Numbered from the stretch's first letter, positions 4,668 to 52,413 are shown. The stretch: DNA of 64,000 nucleotides from Parcubacteria group bacterium (GCA_016203945.1 JACQLT010000003.1:10958-74957); one strand, 5' to 3'. Notes: a model not told the origin generated them from the sequence alone. Program-made: numbers and translations.

Positions 4668-5608
4668 CGCTTGCGCTTAAAATATAGATATAGCGTCACC
4701 ACGGCAATTGCCATGAATATCATGATGAACCAATAATCTTTCGTGTGGTTTCCGATCGGCAGCTCAACATTCATGCCAAAGATGGAGGCGATGAGCGTGA
4801 GCGGAAGAATGAGCGTGGAAAGCACGGTGAGGAGTCGCACAACCTCGTTTGTCTTTGCGGTGAGCAGGGAGTTGTTGGTCTCTTCAAGTGCCCGCACGGT
4901 TTCCCGGGCAGTTTCTAGCTCGTGGACCGACTGGTTGTAGTCGTCCACGATGTCCGAGAGATAGGGCTCAACTTCGGATCCAAAGAAGTCAGCGCCTTCT
5001 TTCCTGAGCCGCTCGAGGATTTCTCCTTGAGGTTCAACGATCCTCCAGAAATTGATGACATCCGCTTTTGCCAGCGAGATTTCCCGCACTTGGGTGCGTT
5101 CTTCTCCCTGGAAGATCTTCTCTTCGATCTGGTCTATCTTCAGGTTGACCCTCGTGAGTTTTAGCAGAGACTGCTTCCAGAATCCGCTGAGAACATAGAA
5201 GAGAAGGTATCCTGAACTTTGGCCGAGATAGTTGCCTCTTGCCTCGGGATACATGTTGCACTTGTCAAACAGCGCCTTCACCGGAACAATGGAGCTGTAG
5301 TGTACCGTGATGAGCGCGTTTTTGGTCACCAGGATGTCAAGCTCCCGGGGGCGGGTTTCTTTCCGTTCTTTGCTGTATACGGGGTAATAGAGAATGAGAG
5401 AAAGGTAATCTGGAAAGCGCTCCACCTTGGGACGCCAGGCGGGAATCAAGAGTTCGTCCAATACCAAAGGATGAAAATGAAAACTCCGGCGCAAGTCGTC
5501 AATATCTTTTCGGGTGGGGTTCTGAATGTCCACCCATTTTACGGTTGGCCCCTGAATCACCCTGAGCATTACAGCAGTATACCACAGCAAGAATATATCA
5601 AACAACAT
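4658..5608 (-). CDS. corA: Magnesium/cobalt transporter CorA
   Basis: 316 aa with two C-terminal TM helices carrying the FGMNV (GMN) signature. An AAGGA lies 5 nt upstream of the ATG at 5608. Confidence 0.85.
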   Translation of the reverse strand: MLFDIFLLWYTAVMLRVIQGPTVKWVDIQNPTRKDIDDLRRSFHFHPLVLDELLIPAWRPKVERFPDYLSLILYYPVYSKERKETRPRELDILVTKNALITVHYSSIVPVKALFDKCNMYPEARGNYLGQSSGYLLFYVLSGFWKQSLLKLTRVNLKIDQIEEKIFQGEERTQVREISLAKADVINFWRIVEPQGEILERLRKEGADFFGSEVEPYLSDIVDDYNQSVHELETARETVRALEETNNSLLTAKTNEVVRLLTVLSTLILPLTLIASIFGMNVELPIGNHTKDYWFIMIFMAIAVVTLYLYFKRKRWV

Positions 5609-5611
5609 TTC

Positions 5612-5649
5612 TATCCTTGGCTGTATCCTTGTATCCTTGACTATCCTTG
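5612..5649. repeat. Four tandem copies of TATCCTTG (CAAGGATA on the corA strand)
   Basis: Copies at 5612-5619, 5624-5631, 5632-5639 and 5642-5649. The array begins 4 nt upstream of the corA start codon. Confidence 0.85.
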
Positions 5650-5686
5650 GCTAAGCCAAGGTGTGGATAACTTGGCTAAGCCAAGG
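5645..5686. repeat. Perfect hairpin/cruciform with TGTGGATAA in the loop
   Basis: ccttggctaagccaagg (5645-5661), then tgtggataa (5662-5670), then cttggctaagccaagg (5671-5686). The architecture is the same as at 1295-1338. Confidence 0.7.
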
Positions 5687-5698
5687 AAGGAAGCAGAG

Positions 5699-5727
5699 TT
5701 GACAGGAAGAGAGATATATGCTATACT
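5699..5727 (+). promoter_or_regulatory. Near-consensus sigma70-type promoter
   Basis: TTGACA (5699-5704), exactly 17 nt of spacer, then TATACT (5722-5727). Confidence 0.55.
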
Positions 5728-5734
5728 GTATATA

Positions 5735-6181
5735 TCCTGGCAGCAGAGTGGGAGCTGTCGGATAAACGGAGAAGATCTCCGCGCCTTCCAGAAGAACCGG
5801 GAGGAAGCGTATTTCAACCGAAAGAACCGGCACCATCGGGAAGGACCCGATGGAGAGGAGATAGCTGTGATTGGCAATGTATTCAAAACGATTTTCTGGC
5901 CACTCCGCAAGCCCCTGGATTTCCTGATCCTGGACATCCTGCGCGAGTCTGTTCCTCTGTTGCGTCGGAGGAGGGAGAGGGACCATCTTCCGCAGAAGTG
6001 AAAGACGAGCTAGCACCAAGGTCTGGGGGTGGACCCACTCCACCCCCAACCCAAGTCCCGCTAAGGGTAACACCAAGGCGGACGTTTTGTTTTAGAGGGG
6101 TACGCATTAAAAAAGCTATCGCCCAATTAATGAGTTTTGTCGGGCTGGCAGTCGCAGGGCTTGACTGCTAATTTTGTTTTT
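5735..6181 (+). ncRNA. Orphan transcription unit without convincing ORF (candidate structured RNA; class unknown)
   Basis: Starts at the promoter at 5699. Contains strong hairpins: CCATCGGG/CCCGATGG (5833-5853) and TGGGGGTGGA/TCCACCCCCA (6024-6048). Ends at a terminator, GCAGTC/GACTGC (6148-6168) plus a T-run to 6181. The best in-unit ORF is only a 44-codon GTG ORF (5867..6001). Confidence 0.3.
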
Positions 6182-17829: not shown

Positions 17830-17858
17830 TTGACACGAACTCTGGTCTTTATTAGTAT
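17830..17858 (+). promoter_or_regulatory. Near-consensus promoter
   Basis: TTGACA (17830-17835), 17 nt of spacer, then TAGTAT (17853-17858). Confidence 0.5.
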
Positions 17859-17900
17859 ATATCAAATCGGTTCAGCTCGTTTTAGAGATGGAGGATTCTG

Positions 17901-18092
17901 TTGGCAGAGTTATTCTCTCCGCAAGACGCACCAGAGGACGTTTGGCTGCACCCCGTCCTAAACGGGGAAGACGTGGGCGTTCCGCTCAAGCGAGTGGGCG
18001 ACCACGTCATTGCAGAGCGGGGATTACCTCGGAAACTGCCTATCAACCAGCTACCGCAGTGTCCAGAATATCGACTTCGTCTCATCATCTGA
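17901..18092 (+). CDS. Hypothetical 63-aa protein (alternatively the unit is an ncRNA)
   Basis: GGAGG (17890-17894) lies 6 nt before TTG 17901. The overlapping 71-aa ATG frame is Arg-rich and looks off-frame. GC looks high by eye. Confidence 0.3.
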   Translation: MAELFSPQDAPEDVWLHPVLNGEDVGVPLKRVGDHVIAERGLPRKLPINQLPQCPEYRLRLII

Positions 18093-18117
18093 CAACGCGC
18101 TGACTCGCATATGCGAT

Positions 18118-18152
18118 AGGGCAGGATCTTTAAGGTCTCTGCCCTCTTTTTT
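18118..18152 (+). terminator. Rho-independent terminator
   Basis: AGGGCAG (18118-18124) pairs with CTGCCCT (18139-18145), followed by tctttttt. Confidence 0.7.
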
Positions 18153-18168
18153 GTGATATACTAGACAC

Positions 18169-18453
18169 ATGAATCCCGTTAGAGAAAACAAAACCTGGTA
18201 TACCTATCTCTTGCAAAGCAAGAAAGACAAACACTGGTATACTGGCTGTACTGCAGATTTACGGAAGCGCTTTAAAGAACACAATGACAACCTGGTAACA
18301 TCAACAAAAGGTCGTGGCCCTCTCAATCTTATTTACTACGAAGCGTGTTTCGATAAAAATGATGCCTTTGCGCGAGAAAGATATTTGAAATCGGGTATGG
18401 GCAAACGATATTTAAAAAATCGGCTAAAGCGCTTCCTTTCTCTAACGAGATGA
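18169..18453 (+). CDS. GIY-YIG nuclease domain protein
   Basis: WYTYLLQSKKDKHWYTGCTADLRKRFKEHN matches the GIY-YIG (UPF0213-type) pattern. Confidence 0.8.
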   Translation: MNPVRENKTWYTYLLQSKKDKHWYTGCTADLRKRFKEHNDNLVTSTKGRGPLNLIYYEACFDKNDAFARERYLKSGMGKRYLKNRLKRFLSLTR

Positions 18454-46937: not shown

Positions 46938-46978
46938 CTTGTATCATACAAAAAATCACCCCAAAAGTCAATCGTATG

Positions 46979-47062
46979 CTGTGTACCTCGGTCTAGAACC
47001 TTAGGTTTAAGAGGGGTTTTAGGGCTTTTTCAGAGTGTCTCATTGACCCGTCTCGGTCGGGG
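46979..47062. repeat. 84-bp repeat, copy A
   Basis: About 87% identical to 47738..47821 (hand alignment, about 11 mismatches). Confidence 0.85.
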
Positions 47063-47657: not shown

Positions 47658-47737
47658 AGCTATTAAAACTCTCTAGTGTGATGGACTTGTCTCAAACTGG
47701 CTATATACCTCAGTCACCTGACTTAGCATATGACGGC

Positions 47738-47821
47738 TGTGTACCTCGGTCTAGAACCGAGGGTTTAAGGGGGATTTCAGGGCTTTCTAAGGGTGTCTCA
47801 TCTACCCGTCTCGGTCGGGGA
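47738..47821. repeat. 84-bp repeat, copy B, with T-arm-like hairpin
   Basis: On the minus strand CTCGG-TTCTAGA-CCGAG aligns with the tRNA-Gln T arm CTTGG-TTCGAAT-CCAAG, with compensatory changes. It is preceded by the shared flank tcacctgacttagcatatgacggctg (47714-47739). Confidence 0.8.
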
Positions 47822-48490
47822 TTATTTTTTCTTTTCGTTATCTTTTCTTGTCCTATATTCCGTAATTTGCTTCGGCAAATCGTAAAGATATTTGAGTAAG
47901 TAATCAAGAAATTCTATTGCGTCTTTAATGTCTTGCGGATTTTTTGCAGCTTGTTCTGCCTTTGGATGAGCCGAGTCATTTCTCAATAATCTCAATTCAT
48001 CAGACCACTCCCTCATTATCGGGGGAAGAATACCTTTGGTGGCTAAATCGTTAATTTCGCTCTTGAGATCACTCCCAACGGCTTTATTCAGACGAAGGGC
48101 GACTTGTAAAACACTTCCTATCATTACTGCTGCCGCGTCCCAACTTTCATTCTTCACAGACTCATGCGCCTGCAACCAAAAACGCTGAACTTCTTCGGGC
48201 CAGTATTTCGGTGCTTCAATTTTTCCAACAACCCAAGGAAGAACTTGATAGTTATGCAGTCCACCGCCATATTCACTTGCCGACCATAAAACCATCACAT
48301 ATCCGGCACAATTTCCGCATTTGTAAGTATCGAAATTTAATTTTTTGCTTGAATTGGGTTTTTTCTTCTCAGCACGATGCTCAAGCGAAAAATTGCCTTC
48401 TTCCAAGCAGAAAGGGCATTGTATCTGGTAAAGAGATAGAGTATCTCCTCTAGATCCGTATCCTTCTCCTAGGCTCCACCAACTATCCAT
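47822..48490 (-). CDS. Zinc-ribbon + DUF4145 (HEPN-like) protein
   Basis: CPFC...CGNC at the N-terminus. The C-terminal region SWDAAAVMIGSVLQVALR...LRLLRNDSAHP carries an R-x4-H motif. The start is taken at MDSWW, because the ORF-track N-terminus runs into the tRNA. Confidence 0.65.
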   Translation of the reverse strand: MDSWWSLGEGYGSRGDTLSLYQIQCPFCLEEGNFSLEHRAEKKKPNSSKKLNFDTYKCGNCAGYVMVLWSASEYGGGLHNYQVLPWVVGKIEAPKYWPEEVQRFWLQAHESVKNESWDAAAVMIGSVLQVALRLNKAVGSDLKSEINDLATKGILPPIMREWSDELRLLRNDSAHPKAEQAAKNPQDIKDAIEFLDYLLKYLYDLPKQITEYRTRKDNEKKK

Positions 48491-48553
48491 AATATGTGTA
48501 AGTAGTTTAATTATTACCGATGCATCTCGGTCATCTGACTTAGCATATGACGG

Positions 48554-48624
48554 CTGCCGGGCTTGGATTCGAACCAAGATACCTACCTCCAAAGGGTAGT
48601 GTCCTACCGTTAGACGACCCGGCA
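48554..48624 (-). tRNA. tRNA-Gln (anticodon UUG)
   Basis: Read on the minus strand: acceptor TGCCGGG/CCCGGCA (U1-A72), anticodon arm CTACC-CTTTGGA-GGTAG, T arm CTTGG-TTCGAAT-CCAAG, discriminator G. Confidence 0.88.
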
Positions 48625-48628
48625 ATAT

Positions 48629-49744
48629 TTACTTTCGTTCGCAAGTTTCAATGATTGCGAGTTCAAGAGGAAGTTGCGGAATGTAGGCATACTTCATCTT
48701 GTTCTCAGCGGCAAGGAACAACTCCACCGCTTTCTGCAGGTCCCGCTCTTCCCAAAGAGCGGTCTGCTTTTTCATCCTCTCTTTCTGTTCCTTTGTATAT
48801 CCTGCGAGCAGCACGTTCTCAAGGTCTGGACTAATTTTTACTAACAGGGAATATCTCAAATGCGTGGCGAGCGCCTTTGCAAACTCATAAGGATCACTCC
48901 CCTGCTCTAAGGCACTGGAAAGAAACCCTATGGCTTCTTTTCCCTTCCTCTCCACGAGTAATTGAGCCAGCTGCGCCACTAGGTTAATATCCACCAGCCC
49001 CAGGAGCTCTTTTACCTGATCTGCGTCAATCCCCTTCTTCTTTGTACCCGAGCCAAGCTGAAAAGTCAAAACTTTGTCAAGAATGCTTTCCGCGTCCCGC
49101 AGGGAGCCCTGGGCCGCCAAAGCGATGAGTTCAAGGGCCGCTTTTTCCACCTCCAAATGTTCTTTCTTTGCCAATGTGTTGAGGCGCTGCACCATCTCTT
49201 CTGCCCTGAGCTTGCGAAAATCAAAGCGCTGGCACCGGGACATAATGGTCCCTATCATCTTGTGCGTCTCGGTCGTAGCCAGGATGAATATGGCGTGAGC
49301 AGGGGGCTCTTCTAAGGTCTTGAGCAAGGCGTTTGCGGCTTCCTTGGTGAGCTGATGGGCTTCGTCAATCACAAACACCTTGTACTTGAGCTTGACTGGC
49401 ATGAACTTGATGCCCTCTTTGAGTTCTCGGATCTCGTCTATGCCCCTGTTCGAGGCGGCGTCAATCTCAACCAAATCCATGGCCCTTCCCCCGTTTATCT
49501 CCTGGCAGGCAGAACACGCATTGCACGGCTCTCCGTCTTTGCCGAGCTTCTCGCAGTTCACCGCTTTCGCAAGCAGGCGCGCCATGGTTGTCTTCCCGGA
49601 TCCTCTGGTTCCGCAAAAGAGATACGCATGAGAAACTAGGCCGTGTGCCAAGGCGTTCTTTAACGTCTGCACTACGTGCTCTTGTCCAATGATCTCTGCA
49701 AAGGTTTTCGGCCTGTATTTTCTGTAAAGCGCGAGGGAAGCCAT
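48629..49744 (-). CDS. dnaX: DNA polymerase III subunit gamma/tau
   Basis: YRPKTFAEIIGQEHV, GTRGSGKTT, a CxxC zinc module and VFVIDEAHQL. Confidence 0.92.
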   Translation of the reverse strand: MASLALYRKYRPKTFAEIIGQEHVVQTLKNALAHGLVSHAYLFCGTRGSGKTTMARLLAKAVNCEKLGKDGEPCNACSACQEINGGRAMDLVEIDAASNRGIDEIRELKEGIKFMPVKLKYKVFVIDEAHQLTKEAANALLKTLEEPPAHAIFILATTETHKMIGTIMSRCQRFDFRKLRAEEMVQRLNTLAKKEHLEVEKAALELIALAAQGSLRDAESILDKVLTFQLGSGTKKKGIDADQVKELLGLVDINLVAQLAQLLVERKGKEAIGFLSSALEQGSDPYEFAKALATHLRYSLLVKISPDLENVLLAGYTKEQKERMKKQTALWEERDLQKAVELFLAAENKMKYAYIPQLPLELAIIETCERK

Positions 49745-49746
49745 GA

Positions 49747-50349
49747 CTATATCTTAAACACGAAGAGTTTGTACCCAAAAAAGTTCCACGCCAAAGAAAC
49801 AAAGGCTGCAACGACAGCTCCCACGTTCGCCCAGAGCGCTTTGGAAAAACCAAATTGCGGACCTATGACGTTTACCACAAAAGAGGCAGCCCCTACGTTA
49901 ATGACAAACCCTAAGCCACTTACAGCAAAGAATTGCAAGAATTCCTGCCAGGCGGTTTTATCAACATTCTTTTTTGGAAAGGTCCAATATTTGTTCCAGA
50001 AATAGCTGTTTATGACCGCAGTCAAAAAGGAAGTCCCTTTGAACAGGGAGTATGAGAAGCCAGAGGCTGCTCCCGTAAGAGCGATGAGGAAATTGAGCAC
50101 TCCAAGATCAATAAAGGAGTTGAGCGCTCCGACAAGAAGAAACCTTGCCGCCTGAAACAGTGCAGGCAAGGTACGGGCTATCGCGGAAGCCACGACAATG
50201 CCTACGGCAGACAGAGCAGGAAAGAGTATGAGGATGGCCGGAAGATACGGCACAGAAAATTCCTCGAGGTTATTTGCCACGCTGAGAAAAAATACCGCAA
50301 TCAAGAATCCTGCGAGTGCTGCAAGTACAATATCTTTTTTTGTTGCCAT
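49747..50349 (-). CDS. GtrA-family membrane protein
   Basis: 200 aa, 4 TM, with RFLLVGALNSFIDLGVLNFL and YFWNKYWTF motifs. The start is taken at MATKKD. The 200-codon upstream extension was rejected. Confidence 0.8.
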   Translation of the reverse strand: MATKKDIVLAALAGFLIAVFFLSVANNLEEFSVPYLPAILILFPALSAVGIVVASAIARTLPALFQAARFLLVGALNSFIDLGVLNFLIALTGAASGFSYSLFKGTSFLTAVINSYFWNKYWTFPKKNVDKTAWQEFLQFFAVSGLGFVINVGAASFVVNVIGPQFGFSKALWANVGAVVAAFVSLAWNFFGYKLFVFKI

Positions 50350-50377
50350 ATAGGGTATCGTATCACAAAAGTTTACA

Positions 50378-50406
50378 TAAAAAAAGGAACGAGACATGGT
50401 CTCGTT
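50378..50406 (-). terminator. Rho-independent terminator 29 nt upstream of the gtrA start
   Basis: On the minus strand: AACGAGAC-CAT-GTCTCGTT followed by cctttttttatg. Confidence 0.75.
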
Positions 50407-50944
50407 TTTAGAATGTGGTTGGGTGCCTGGGGCACCGGAGCAGCTATGAGGTCCGCTCCGATGCCCCAGGCCCTGCAGGGCCTTTTGCCGGTGTCCCCAC
50501 GGCACTGGCACTGGCATTAGGCGCCGGCGCCGGCGTTCAGCTCGACGAGCTGATTTTCGTCTTCTGCCCGGGCATCGTATGGACGCGCATCGTGTGAGAT
50601 TCCTTTCCCACAATCTCGGACTACGTGCCGAGCCGGGAAAACCACCTGAAGGAACAATCCTTCGGCCTTCCTTTCCATTCCCAAGCCCTGAAGCACAGGC
50701 GCAGAAAGGAATTCCGAAGTTTTCACAGCATAGCATATGGCTGGAGTTTGTCAATAGGTAAGATTCAGGAGCCATACATGATGGCTCCTTTGAGGAGAGA
50801 GTGGGATTGGGAAAGTGCTGAAAGTGCTTTTCTGCGTCTAGGGGGGTAGAGATCGCGAATGAATTCTTTTCTCGTCTGCACGAGATGTGAGACCGATATC
50901 GAGCAAGCCTGGTCTCGTCTGGAAAGAAACGCCCTGACCTCTCC
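50378..50944 (-). ncRNA. About 567-nt promoter-to-terminator unit without credible ORF (candidate large structured RNA or leader)
   Basis: Starts at the promoter at 50951-50979. Contains many GC-rich hairpins, e.g. AGGAGCCAT/ATGGCTCCT (50767-50789) and CCTGGGGCA..CGGAGC/GCTCCG..TGCCCCAGG (50426-50470). Ends at the terminator at 50378-50406. Confidence 0.3.
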
Positions 50945-50950
50945 ACCCTC

Positions 50951-50979
50951 ATTATCCCACCTGCAAACTACCCCGTCAA
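50951..50979 (-). promoter_or_regulatory. Near-consensus promoter (minus strand)
   Basis: TTGACG (50979-50974), 17 nt of spacer, then GATAAT (50956-50951). Confidence 0.55.
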
Positions 50980-51018
50980 CCCATGCTAAAGCCTCAAGGT
51001 ATGGTATACTAAATATAT

Positions 51019-52413
51019 ATGATGCGCGCGTATAACTCCCTTACGAAGAAGAAAGAAGAAATAAAGCCGGGACAAGGCAAAAAGATCAAACTGTTTGTTT
51101 GCGGACCTACGGCATACGACTTCTCGCATCTCGGGCACGCGAGAACATATATCGTCTTTGACGCCATGGTCAGATACTGGAGATCCCTTGGCTTTGGCGT
51201 CTTCTACCTCCAGAACATCACGGACATTGATGACAAGATCATCCAAAGGGCCACAGAGCAAGGACAAGATCCCCTGACTCTAGCCGATACCTTTGCCGAG
51301 TATTACTTTGAAGATATGGAAGTTCTTGGCATACGAAGCGTGAGCAAATACGCCAAGGCGACTAATTATATCCAGGAAATCATCTCCCAGGTGCAACGCT
51401 TGGAAGAACAGGGATACGCATATCGTATTGAGGATGGCGTCTACTACGACGTCACCAAGTTCAAGGGATACGGAAAGCTTTCTGGAAGAACGACTGAGGG
51501 GGCAGAAGACGCTGTCTCCCGCATTGACGAATCAATAACAAAAAGGCACAAGGCAGACTTTGCCCTCTGGAAACTTTCCAAGGAGGATGAGCTCGCCTGG
51601 ACGAGTCCCTGGGGGGACGGCCGCCCTGGCTGGCATATTGAAGACACCGCAATCACGGAAAAGGAGCTTGGCGAGCAGTACGACGTTCACGGAGGAGCAC
51701 GCGACCTTCTCTTCCCTCATCATGAAGCCGAAATAGCCCAAATGGAGGCGCTCTCCGGCAAGGCACCCCTGGTGAAGCACTGGATCCATACGGGACTCCT
51801 CACCGTTGAAGAGGAGAAGATGGCAAAGTCGCAGGGCAACTTCATCACCATCAGGGAGTTTATTGAAGAATATTCTGCGCGGGCAATGCGTTTCCTCATC
51901 CTTAGCTCTCACTGGCACTCCCCTATTGACTACTCGACGGCTCTGGTTCAGCAGACGGAACAAGATCTCAAACGCATTGATGAATTTTTATCAAAGCTGG
52001 AATCCGTTGAAAGCTCGAATAGAACCAATGCGTGGCAGAAACCTCTCAAGAGGTCAGAGAAAGAATTTTGGGCGGCCCTAGAAGACGATTTCCACACGCC
52101 AAAAGCAATCGCCTCTCTCTTCAACCTCATCCGCTCCGTCAATCCTCTGTTTTCAAATAATGAATTGAACAAGGAAGGAGCTCAGACAATCCTCGCGTTT
52201 CTTCAGAAAGCAGACGAAGTACTCAGTTTTCTGTTCTGGGGCAGAGAAGAAACAGAAGAAGCTCCTCAGGAAATCCAAACACTTCTGGAAGAGCGCGAGC
52301 AAGCAAGAGCATTAAATGACTGGAGCAAAGCAGACGAGCTGAGAGATCGCATAGCCAAGGTTGGTTGGCAGATAGACGACACTTCTGACGGCCCTCGCCT
52401 TAAGAAGCAATAA
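51019..52413 (+). CDS. cysS: Cysteinyl-tRNA synthetase (canonical)
   Basis: VCGPTAYDFSHLGHA and KMAKSQGN, plus a full C-terminal anticodon-binding region ending WSKADELRDRIAKVGWQIDD. Confidence 0.93.
   Translation: MMRAYNSLTKKKEEIKPGQGKKIKLFVCGPTAYDFSHLGHARTYIVFDAMVRYWRSLGFGVFYLQNITDIDDKIIQRATEQGQDPLTLADTFAEYYFEDMEVLGIRSVSKYAKATNYIQEIISQVQRLEEQGYAYRIEDGVYYDVTKFKGYGKLSGRTTEGAEDAVSRIDESITKRHKADFALWKLSKEDELAWTSPWGDGRPGWHIEDTAITEKELGEQYDVHGGARDLLFPHHEAEIAQMEALSGKAPLVKHWIHTGLLTVEEEKMAKSQGNFITIREFIEEYSARAMRFLILSSHWHSPIDYSTALVQQTEQDLKRIDEFLSKLESVESSNRTNAWQKPLKRSEKEFWAALEDDFHTPKAIASLFNLIRSVNPLFSNNELNKEGAQTILAFLQKADEVLSFLFWGREETEEAPQEIQTLLEEREQARALNDWSKADELRDRIAKVGWQIDDTSDGPRLKKQ

Follow-up and report, generated by a model that had tools for sequence, protein, structure and literature searches.

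Several orphan classes of structured non-coding RNA, among them OLE, ROOL, GOLLD, raiA and HEARO, come from long GC-rich intergenic regions. Here we describe such a region in a 64,000-nucleotide stretch of the genome of a Parcubacteria group bacterium (GCA_016203945.1 JACQLT010000003.1:10958-74957; hereafter the window, with positions counted from its first letter), in which a gap of 669 nt (50350..51018) separates gtrA on the minus strand from cysS on the plus strand. The original prediction had read the minus strand of this gap as a single 567-nt promoter-to-terminator unit with no credible open reading frame (ORF), either a very long regulatory leader of gtrA or an independent large structured RNA. 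From a comparison of the window with related loci (designated by L-numbers), we conclude, with moderate confidence, that the gap holds two tandem, independently promoted, structured small RNA genes on the minus strand, U1 and U2, and that U2 belongs to a lineage-restricted family of paralogs. This family, as compared here, has nine members from about seven independent genomes, which fall into three paralog groups.

The locus shares with the OLE, ROOL, GOLLD, raiA and HEARO class a long gap, a GC content above the genome background, a promoter and terminator of its own, many stems whose changes preserve pairing and the lack of a conserved ORF. It differs from that class in that the U2 family gave no covariance-model match, is confined to about seven Parcubacteria contigs and includes tandem paralogs, and in that a hypervariable spacer takes up about a third of the molecule. 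Like U2, the type I toxin mRNAs, hok and aapA1 among them, are structured RNAs of 200–400 nt with a strong terminator and a short ORF; pairing of the 5′ end hides the ribosome-binding site, and the copies often lie in tandem in intergenic hot spots. By contrast, the peptides that U2 and its homologs could encode are hydrophilic, unconserved and as short as 5 amino acids, without a PADLOC or Pfam match, and no antisense promoter was found on the plus strand. Attenuators of the trp and thr type resemble the locus in having a short ORF, alternative hairpins and a terminator that closely precedes a gene of the same orientation, but here gtrA has its own predicted promoter after the terminator, some relatives that retain the gene lack the unit, 130–250 nt lie between the ORF stop and the terminator, and there is neither a conserved run of regulatory codons nor a conserved antiterminator. 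Finally, the sponge RNAs CsrB and RsmZ are similar in standing alone, in carrying several GGA or AGGA motifs (including, in U2, AAGGAA in the loop of a hairpin termed SL4 below) and in ending at a Rho-independent terminator. Such motifs are few in U2, however, with most of them buried in its long 5′ helix (SL1), and the gap gave no match to an Rfam Csr/Rsm family. A literature search found no description of an RNA of this kind.

A scan for promoters and terminators recovered both ends of the predicted unit. Its promoter, P1 (TTGACG-17-GATAAT; 50951..50979, minus strand), scored 10/12 and is TG-extended, and its terminator, AACGAGAC/GTCTCGTT with a T-run, lies at 50406..50378. The short hairpins that had been pointed out are present in the sequence, and the impression of a GC-rich body was borne out (0.60–0.64 over 50400–50699, against about 0.43–0.50 in the flanks). 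The unit is nevertheless a composite, as a second promoter of equal score, P2 (TTGACA-16-TGc-TATGCT; 50727..50754, minus strand), lies inside it and divides it into two tandem units. Promoters with full −35 and −10 elements are rare, numbering 12 on both strands of the 64 kb, and two of them are in this gap; the same scan found terminator-like sites in excess (10 observed, 2.7 expected). P2, not P1, is the promoter conserved in all relatives: it is retained in L008, L007 and L098 (12/12 with TG in L098), with an equivalent promoter in L010, L009 and L011. From its predicted start to the end of the T-run, U2 would span about 345 nt (~50378..50722, minus strand). Its intrinsic terminator (AACGAGAC-CAU-GUCUCGUU followed by U7; 50378..50406, minus strand) is conserved, with compensatory changes in the stem, in L008, L007, L098, L010 and L100.

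The closest CysRS proteins in species-representative genomes are only 32–38% identical to that of the window; a large protein collection yielded six at 75–84% identity, together with several GtrA proteins at 68–78%. All contigs carrying these close relatives have an enlarged cysS-gtrA gap, of up to 1.4 kb, that is homologous to the gap in the window (72% identity over 661 nt in L008, 79% over 267 nt in L007). Homologs of U2 are present in six related Parcubacteria contigs, where the promoter, the 5′ stem-loops, the 14-bp GC hairpin and the terminator recur. We distinguish a group A, made up of the window, L008, L007 and L098, and a group B, made up of L010 (with the near-identical copies L015, L077, L087 and L095), L009 and L011; L098 and group B have the same unit architecture as the window. 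Every group-A genome carries two consecutive promoter-led units, and L007, L098 and L008 carry a third, U3. U3 and the group-B RNA share with U2 the long helix SL1, one of the hairpins SL2 and SL3, an AUG preceded by a purine tract, and the 3′ hairpin together with the terminator. More distantly, L103 (GtrA 58% and CysRS 60% identical to those of the window) has only 73 nt between cysS and gtrA and no RNA unit, and in L102 a gene for a 94-aa membrane protein fills the gap instead. Since it is absent from the one and replaced in the other, the RNA locus is a lineage-specific insertion at a variable spot between core operons. In L077 and L087, a gene for an 87-aa membrane protein, with its own promoter and an AAGGAGG site, lies between two copies of the GC hairpin about 760 nt apart, an arrangement that suggests recombination or insertion at the hairpin.

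U2 is predicted to be transcribed from a near-consensus sigma-70 promoter, to end at a canonical intrinsic terminator and to fold into a long helix, SL1, after which come three or four short hairpins, a GC-rich spacer and a GC hairpin of 14–15 bp. The minimum free energy of this RNA is −157.5 kcal/mol (z −5.56), and none of 100 shuffled sequences folded as well; the same held for the L010 homolog, whose fold had a z of −6.97. A composite transcript of 568 nt, as the original prediction envisaged, also folded better than all 100 of its dinucleotide shuffles (z −4.4). SL1 (50660..50719, minus strand) pairs a CU-rich 5′ strand with a GA-rich 3′ strand under a small hairpin cap. It is predicted in all nine family members, and its 3′ strand (GCAG(A/U)AAAGAGGAU..) is clearly homologous in U3 and group B. 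SL2 (50648..50663, minus strand) is a GAAGGA/UCCUUC hairpin whose stem is conserved and whose loops vary among the U2 and U3 copies. Its 5′ arm shares nucleotides with the base of SL1, so that only one of the two pairings can form at a time; they compete for the same CGAAGG segment, and this overlap is conserved. All four U2 copies of group A contain SL3 (CUCGG/CCGAG, loop CACGUAGU; 50615..50632, minus strand), as do U3 of L007 and group B, with loop lengths that differ by 1–3 nt. SL4 (GUGGGA/UCUCAC; 50594..50611, minus strand) displays the purine tract AAGGAA in its loop. Downstream of a short ORF considered below, a hypervariable, fast-evolving GC-rich spacer leads to the GC hairpin (CUGGGGCAUCGGAG..CUCCGGUGCCCCAG; 50427..50470, minus strand), which consists of 14–15 bp and a variable apical extension.

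The pattern of substitutions supports these helices. When the nine members were compared, 86.9% of the cells of SL1 were paired, as against 40–57% when the partners were slid; 7 of its 22 pairs show double changes, and none of 500 shuffles reached its covariation score. For the GC hairpin the corresponding values were 89.8% and 29–49%, with five pairs showing double changes, a level that 2 of 500 shuffles attained. In L100 this hairpin carries two compensatory double changes (A-U to G-C and G-C to A-U), and although its basal stem is mostly invariant, the apical extensions are wholly different in sequence and yet still pair. In SL4, an A-U pair has become G-C in L008, and a G-U pair has become G-C or A-U in L098 and L007. 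With its own predicted promoter and Rho-independent terminator conserved in relatives, and with a structure supported by covariation (SL1 and the 3′ hairpin) and by the z-scores, in few independent lineages, U2 has the marks expected of a stand-alone small RNA gene. The second alternative in the original prediction is thus upheld in substance: promoters, a conserved terminator, an exceptional fold and compensatory changes, with no Rfam match and no protein-like conservation, argue for independent structured RNA, which is divided between two genes rather than forming one molecule of 567 nt.

The upstream unit, U1, is more variable. It would measure about 185 nt (~50760..50944, minus strand; fold z −2.1) and has a strong promoter in all four group-A genomes: P1 is identical in L008, and at the corresponding position L007 and L098 have promoters of the form TTGACA-TATAAT. 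Indels of up to about 130 nt make its length differ among relatives, but in an alignment of four relatives a CUCGUG..ACGAG hairpin and a 3′ hairpin are conserved, and 8 of 26 predicted pairs still pair through double changes. The 3′ hairpin (GGAGCCA-N7-UGGCUCC; 50768..50788, minus strand), in which two pairs differ in L098 (C-G to U-A and A-U to G-C), is followed by a U-poor tail and would be a weak terminator, so that U1 may read through into U2. About 55–75 nt upstream of the −35 box of P2, the 9-mer AGCACTTTC AGCACTTTC occurs in tandem (50811..50828, minus strand); it is kept as AGYACNTTC in two copies in L007 and L008 and in a single copy in L098. Rather than belonging to a U1 RNA, this repeat could serve P2 as an operator.

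The locus does not correspond to any RNA family that we searched for. Scans with cmscan gave no Rfam match at the gathering score across the window, none at E-values up to 10 on either strand of 50250..51100, and none at E-values up to 1 in five related loci; the permissive searches returned only chance, miRNA-like matches on the GC hairpin. ARAGORN found three tRNAs and no tmRNA in the window. These results agree with the original prediction, which had recognized no RNase P RNA, tmRNA, signal recognition particle (SRP) RNA, 6S RNA or T-box by eye. The four housekeeping RNAs gave no covariance-model match, and the locus is absent from the 73-nt gap of L103, although L103 might carry the RNA at another place. 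The SRP RNA gene, ffs, often precedes dnaX, the gene that follows gtrA here; an assignment by synteny was dropped in view of the missing model match and of the absence of the unit from L103. A frame reading AEDENQLVELNAGAGA and then a stop codon was considered as a tmRNA-like tag; it comes without a tRNA-like domain and is not kept in L007 or L008. A T-box or other cis-acting leader of cysS was rejected as well: the promoters and terminators are on the opposite strand, the cysS ATG is 8 nt from its −10 box, and there is no T-box match. A type I toxin-antitoxin system was set aside because the mini-ORF peptides are hydrophilic, 49500..51500 contains no plus-strand promoter and the plus-strand ORFs are unconserved; the hydrophobic stretches seen by eye on the plus strand of the window and L009, which might have suggested a toxin there, are likewise unconserved and served by no promoter.

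Nor does the gap look like a protein-coding region. No ORF of at least 30 aa on either strand, including those called in the relatives, matched Pfam or PADLOC, and the gene-caller ORFs are inconsistent among the relatives, lying on opposite strands in different contigs. Protein-like three-nucleotide periodicity was not detected: in the 5′ domain of U2, variable columns are distributed 11/11/12 over the three codon phases, and the indels, of 1, 1, 4 and 1–3 nt, fall in loops and are not in threes. The statement that the unit holds no credible ORF requires one qualification. No stop codon interrupts the gtrA frame over the 206 codons that precede the gtrA start, which gives a 401-aa ORF (49747..50967, minus strand), and only 4 of 5000 dinucleotide shuffles remained open to this extent. 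Relatives, however, have just 1–52 open codons at this place and the product has no Pfam match, and we treat the frame, rare as it is by chance, as an accident. It could mislead gene callers into predicting a 401-aa protein.

The strongest competing explanation, which we still regard as unlikely, is that U2 is a small mRNA, in which a structured 5′ untranslated region gates the translation of a 17–41-aa peptide and the GC hairpin and terminator form a stabilizing 3′ untranslated region; the functional product would then be the peptide, or the act of translating it. Several observations tell in its favor and against a purely non-coding U2. In U2 a mini-ORF of 17 codons, MRVHTMPGQKTKISSSS (50537..50590, minus strand), starts at an AUG 9 nt after the purine tract, and in all nine members a purine tract (GGAAAGGAA or AAAGGAGG) is followed 6–11 nt later by an AUG. 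Three of the four U2 copies, those of the window, L007 and L098, keep the frame, with the shared N-terminus M(I)RVHTM(S/P)(G/A)Q and a stop at a homologous GAGCUGA/GAGCUAG; the L007 and L098 products are both 32 aa long. Where the window has lost the first AUG, an in-frame AUU has become AUG one codon later, which hints that translation initiation is under selection. Other small genes use AAGGAGG-type sites and the same 3′ hairpin module: elsewhere in the window (5699..6100), what is likely a small-protein gene ends in a similar hairpin that has the same flanks, AAGGUCUGGGG on the 5′ side and ACCCAAG on the 3′ side, and a B-type GC hairpin ends the 87-aa membrane-protein gene of L077 and L087. 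The 3′ module of U2 is therefore not specific to non-coding units. In addition, the covariation stems from few independent events, because only about seven genomes in three paralog groups carry the family, and many stems, among them SL3 and the GC hairpin over its basal 14 bp, do not vary at all and so are uninformative either way; and the transcription, ends and processing of U1 and U2 are predictions from sequence.

The peptides themselves nevertheless speak against a small mRNA. They range from 5 to 41 aa, are unrelated among U2, U3 and group B, shrink to 5 aa in U3 of L098, and lack both a hydrophobic segment and a Pfam match. A segment shared between U2 and group B (UUCGCG..ACGAU) appears to lie in different frames in the two, and past codon 10 the sequence diverges faster than the flanking proteins, which are 75–84% identical. 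Open frames of 17–41 codons are expected by chance at 63% GC, and the best-conserved part of U2 is the 130 nt upstream of the AUG, where codon periodicity is absent. We consider that the mini-ORF is probably at most regulatory or incidental and is unlikely to encode a conserved protein.

U2 probably acts as a free RNA, either a riboregulator or an RNA that binds a protein or the ribosome. We infer from the competition between the base of SL1 and SL2 for CGAAGG, together with the presence of CU-rich strands able to cover purine tracts, that the 5′ domain may be a conformational switch, in which purine-rich, Shine-Dalgarno-like tracts would be alternately exposed and sequestered. It would make a Shine-Dalgarno-like site accessible or inaccessible, and so either gate translation of the mini-ORF or present and hide a binding site for a protein or the ribosome. 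One bolder variant, which we offer as speculation and regard as unlikely, is that U2, U3 and the group-B RNA are 350–600-nt RNAs of a small groundwater Parcubacteria clade that, with unusually strong promoters and tandem amplification, serve as decoys for the ribosome or an RNA-binding protein, their CU/GA helices mimicking the pair formed by anti-Shine-Dalgarno and Shine-Dalgarno sequences.

It is also conceivable, though improbable, that the units are non-functional or selfish DNA, namely decaying remnants of small genes or hairpin-bounded cassettes that would duplicate and move in a recombination hot spot between two core operons. The content of the gap does vary, from nothing (L103) through a membrane-protein gene (L102), one unit (group B) and two units (window) to three or four modules that end in hairpins (L007 and L098); the 87-aa gene of L077 and L087 is flanked by two copies of the GC hairpin; and U1 varies in length by more than 100 nt. 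Yet near-consensus promoters and terminators are maintained in every copy, and the 5′ domain is conserved about as well as the neighboring genes, with changes that preserve pairing. Transposase, integrase and terminal repeats are absent; blastn searches of the 64-kb window with every unit gave no other copy of U1, U2 or U3 outside the gap, and scans of a viral collection found none. The arm of the GC hairpin occurs only at this locus within the window, with 11 distinct copies in the relatives. Among the 86 loci that a metagenome scan for the hairpin gave, only four belonged to relatives, and these are all near-identical to L010. The possibility that the hairpin is a genome-wide repeat was discarded, as it is single in the window and the other metagenome matches are ordinary terminators of unrelated organisms.

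The remaining alternative is the first of the two in the original prediction, that the transcript from P1 to the terminator is a long cis-acting leader and that gtrA, and perhaps dnaX and tRNA-Gln, are expressed only by regulated read-through. The distance from the T-run to the gtrA ATG (50349), on the same strand, is indeed exactly 28 nt, and the SL1 base and SL2 offer alternative pairings in the 5′ domain. However, this interval, said to leave no room for another promoter, contains an extended −10 box, TGATACGAT (TGaTACGAT; 50357..50365, minus strand), 7 nt upstream of the ATG. A TGnTAnGAT or TGnTATGAT box lies 6–7 nt ahead of the gtrA ATG in L007, L098, L100, L010, L009, L102 and L103, in variants that include TGaTAGGAT, TGaTAAGAT, TGaTATGAT (L102) and TGcTACGAT (L103); it was present in every relative examined, and in L103 and L102 both the box and gtrA-dnaX are intact where the RNA is missing. 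Moreover, the units and gtrA are not steadily adjacent, with one or two further complete promoter-to-terminator units (U3) or the 87-aa gene standing between U2 and gtrA in L007, L098 and L077. There is no conserved antiterminator pairing that involves the terminator stem, and in a read-through transcript the gtrA AUG would be internal, with no Shine-Dalgarno sequence ahead of it. Given that gtrA has its own −10 box, that this box is kept in L103 and L102, and that extra units intervene between U2 and gtrA, the leader model is unsupported, and we consider it very improbable.

The layout at gtrA recurs in the window and marks real gene starts. Twelve ATGs have TGNTANNNT 5–8 nt upstream, and nine of them start ORFs of at least 94 aa, including cysS and gtrA; Shine-Dalgarno-like sequences precede few genes of the window. 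This suggests that translation in this Parcubacteria genome would be mostly leaderless. First genes of operons typically have TGnTAnnnT 5–8 nt before the ATG (5569, 12668, 24408, 30514, 38816, 42492, 50349 and 51019), and T-rich terminator tails often lie directly upstream of these −10 boxes. At the other edge of the gap, cysS has the extended −10 box TGGTATACT (51002..51010, plus strand) 8 nt ahead of its ATG (51019). gtrA and cysS would thus each be transcribed on its own, from an extended −10 promoter directly ahead of its start codon, to give a leaderless mRNA. gtrA (49747..50349, minus strand; 200 aa, Pfam PF04138, E 9e-20) lies outside the RNA units, is called at 200 aa in L001 as well, and is followed by dnaX and tRNA-Gln. 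cysS (51019..52413, plus strand) encodes CysRS (Pfam PF01406, E 1e-108) and is followed by dnaB and recR.

Two other places in the window have comparable units. The first (17830..18152, plus strand) shares the layout of a structured unit ahead of another gene, a point that could be held in favor of a leader. A strong promoter, TTGACA-17-TAGTAT, at 17830 precedes an RNA of about 290 nt (fold z −4.5), which ends at a terminator, AGGGCAG..CTGCCCT with T6, has no Rfam match and holds overlapping putative ORFs of 63 and 71 aa; directly after it, the extended −10 box TGTGATATACT precedes a 94-aa gene in the leaderless arrangement (18169..18453, plus strand). The second (5699..6100, plus strand), in a 630-nt gap, is the likely small-protein gene mentioned above. 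Its promoter, TTGACA-17-TATACT with TG, scored 11/12, and a purine tract precedes a GTG-initiated ORF of 46 codons, found by eye, which corresponds to the last 46 residues of a 260-aa frame (5219..6001). The peptide, (M)IGNVFKTIFWPLRKPLDFLILDILRESVPLLRRRRERDHLPQK, looks protein-like. Downstream, a hairpin, AAGGUCUGGGGGUGGA..UCCACCCCCA followed by ACCCAAG, has flanks like those of the 3′ module of U2 and precedes a terminator; the fold, with a z of −1.8, is unexceptional. Small genes may have this hairpin module as a common 3′ end.

Farther downstream of gtrA, direct repeats lie near tRNA-Gln (48552..48624, minus strand), at 46951..47062, 47709..47820 and 48526..48578. One is an 85-nt element present in two copies that are 87% identical, which by eye appears to include a T-arm-like hairpin; the other is a common 30-nt flank, which is also found after the tRNA. 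Each repeat bounds one gene, an arrangement that resembles small islands inserted in tandem at the tRNA. The gene of the first island (47822..48625, minus strand) matches DUF4145 (PF13643, E 6e-14) and also the PADLOC anti-phage model PD-T7-4 (E 1.6e-10); its listed start overlaps tRNA-Gln, and the true start is probably further downstream.

Because genomes of the Candidate Phyla Radiation are tiny and have little spare DNA, a 669-nt gap filled with strongly promoted, structured, tandem RNA genes is likely to be functional. U2, U3 and the group-B RNA would constitute a new family of structured small RNAs that stand alone, have a narrow distribution and find no match in Rfam. The locus also corrects an annotation habit: since first genes of operons are typically leaderless in this genome, with an extended −10 box 6–8 nt upstream, a terminator that abuts a start codon does not mean control by read-through. 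Given the narrow distribution, the immediate impact is modest; what the family provides is a set of coordinates, a structure model and homologs that can be converted into a covariance model. Were the decoy variant to prove true, these RNAs would act on the translation machinery of an organism that otherwise relies largely on leaderless mRNAs.

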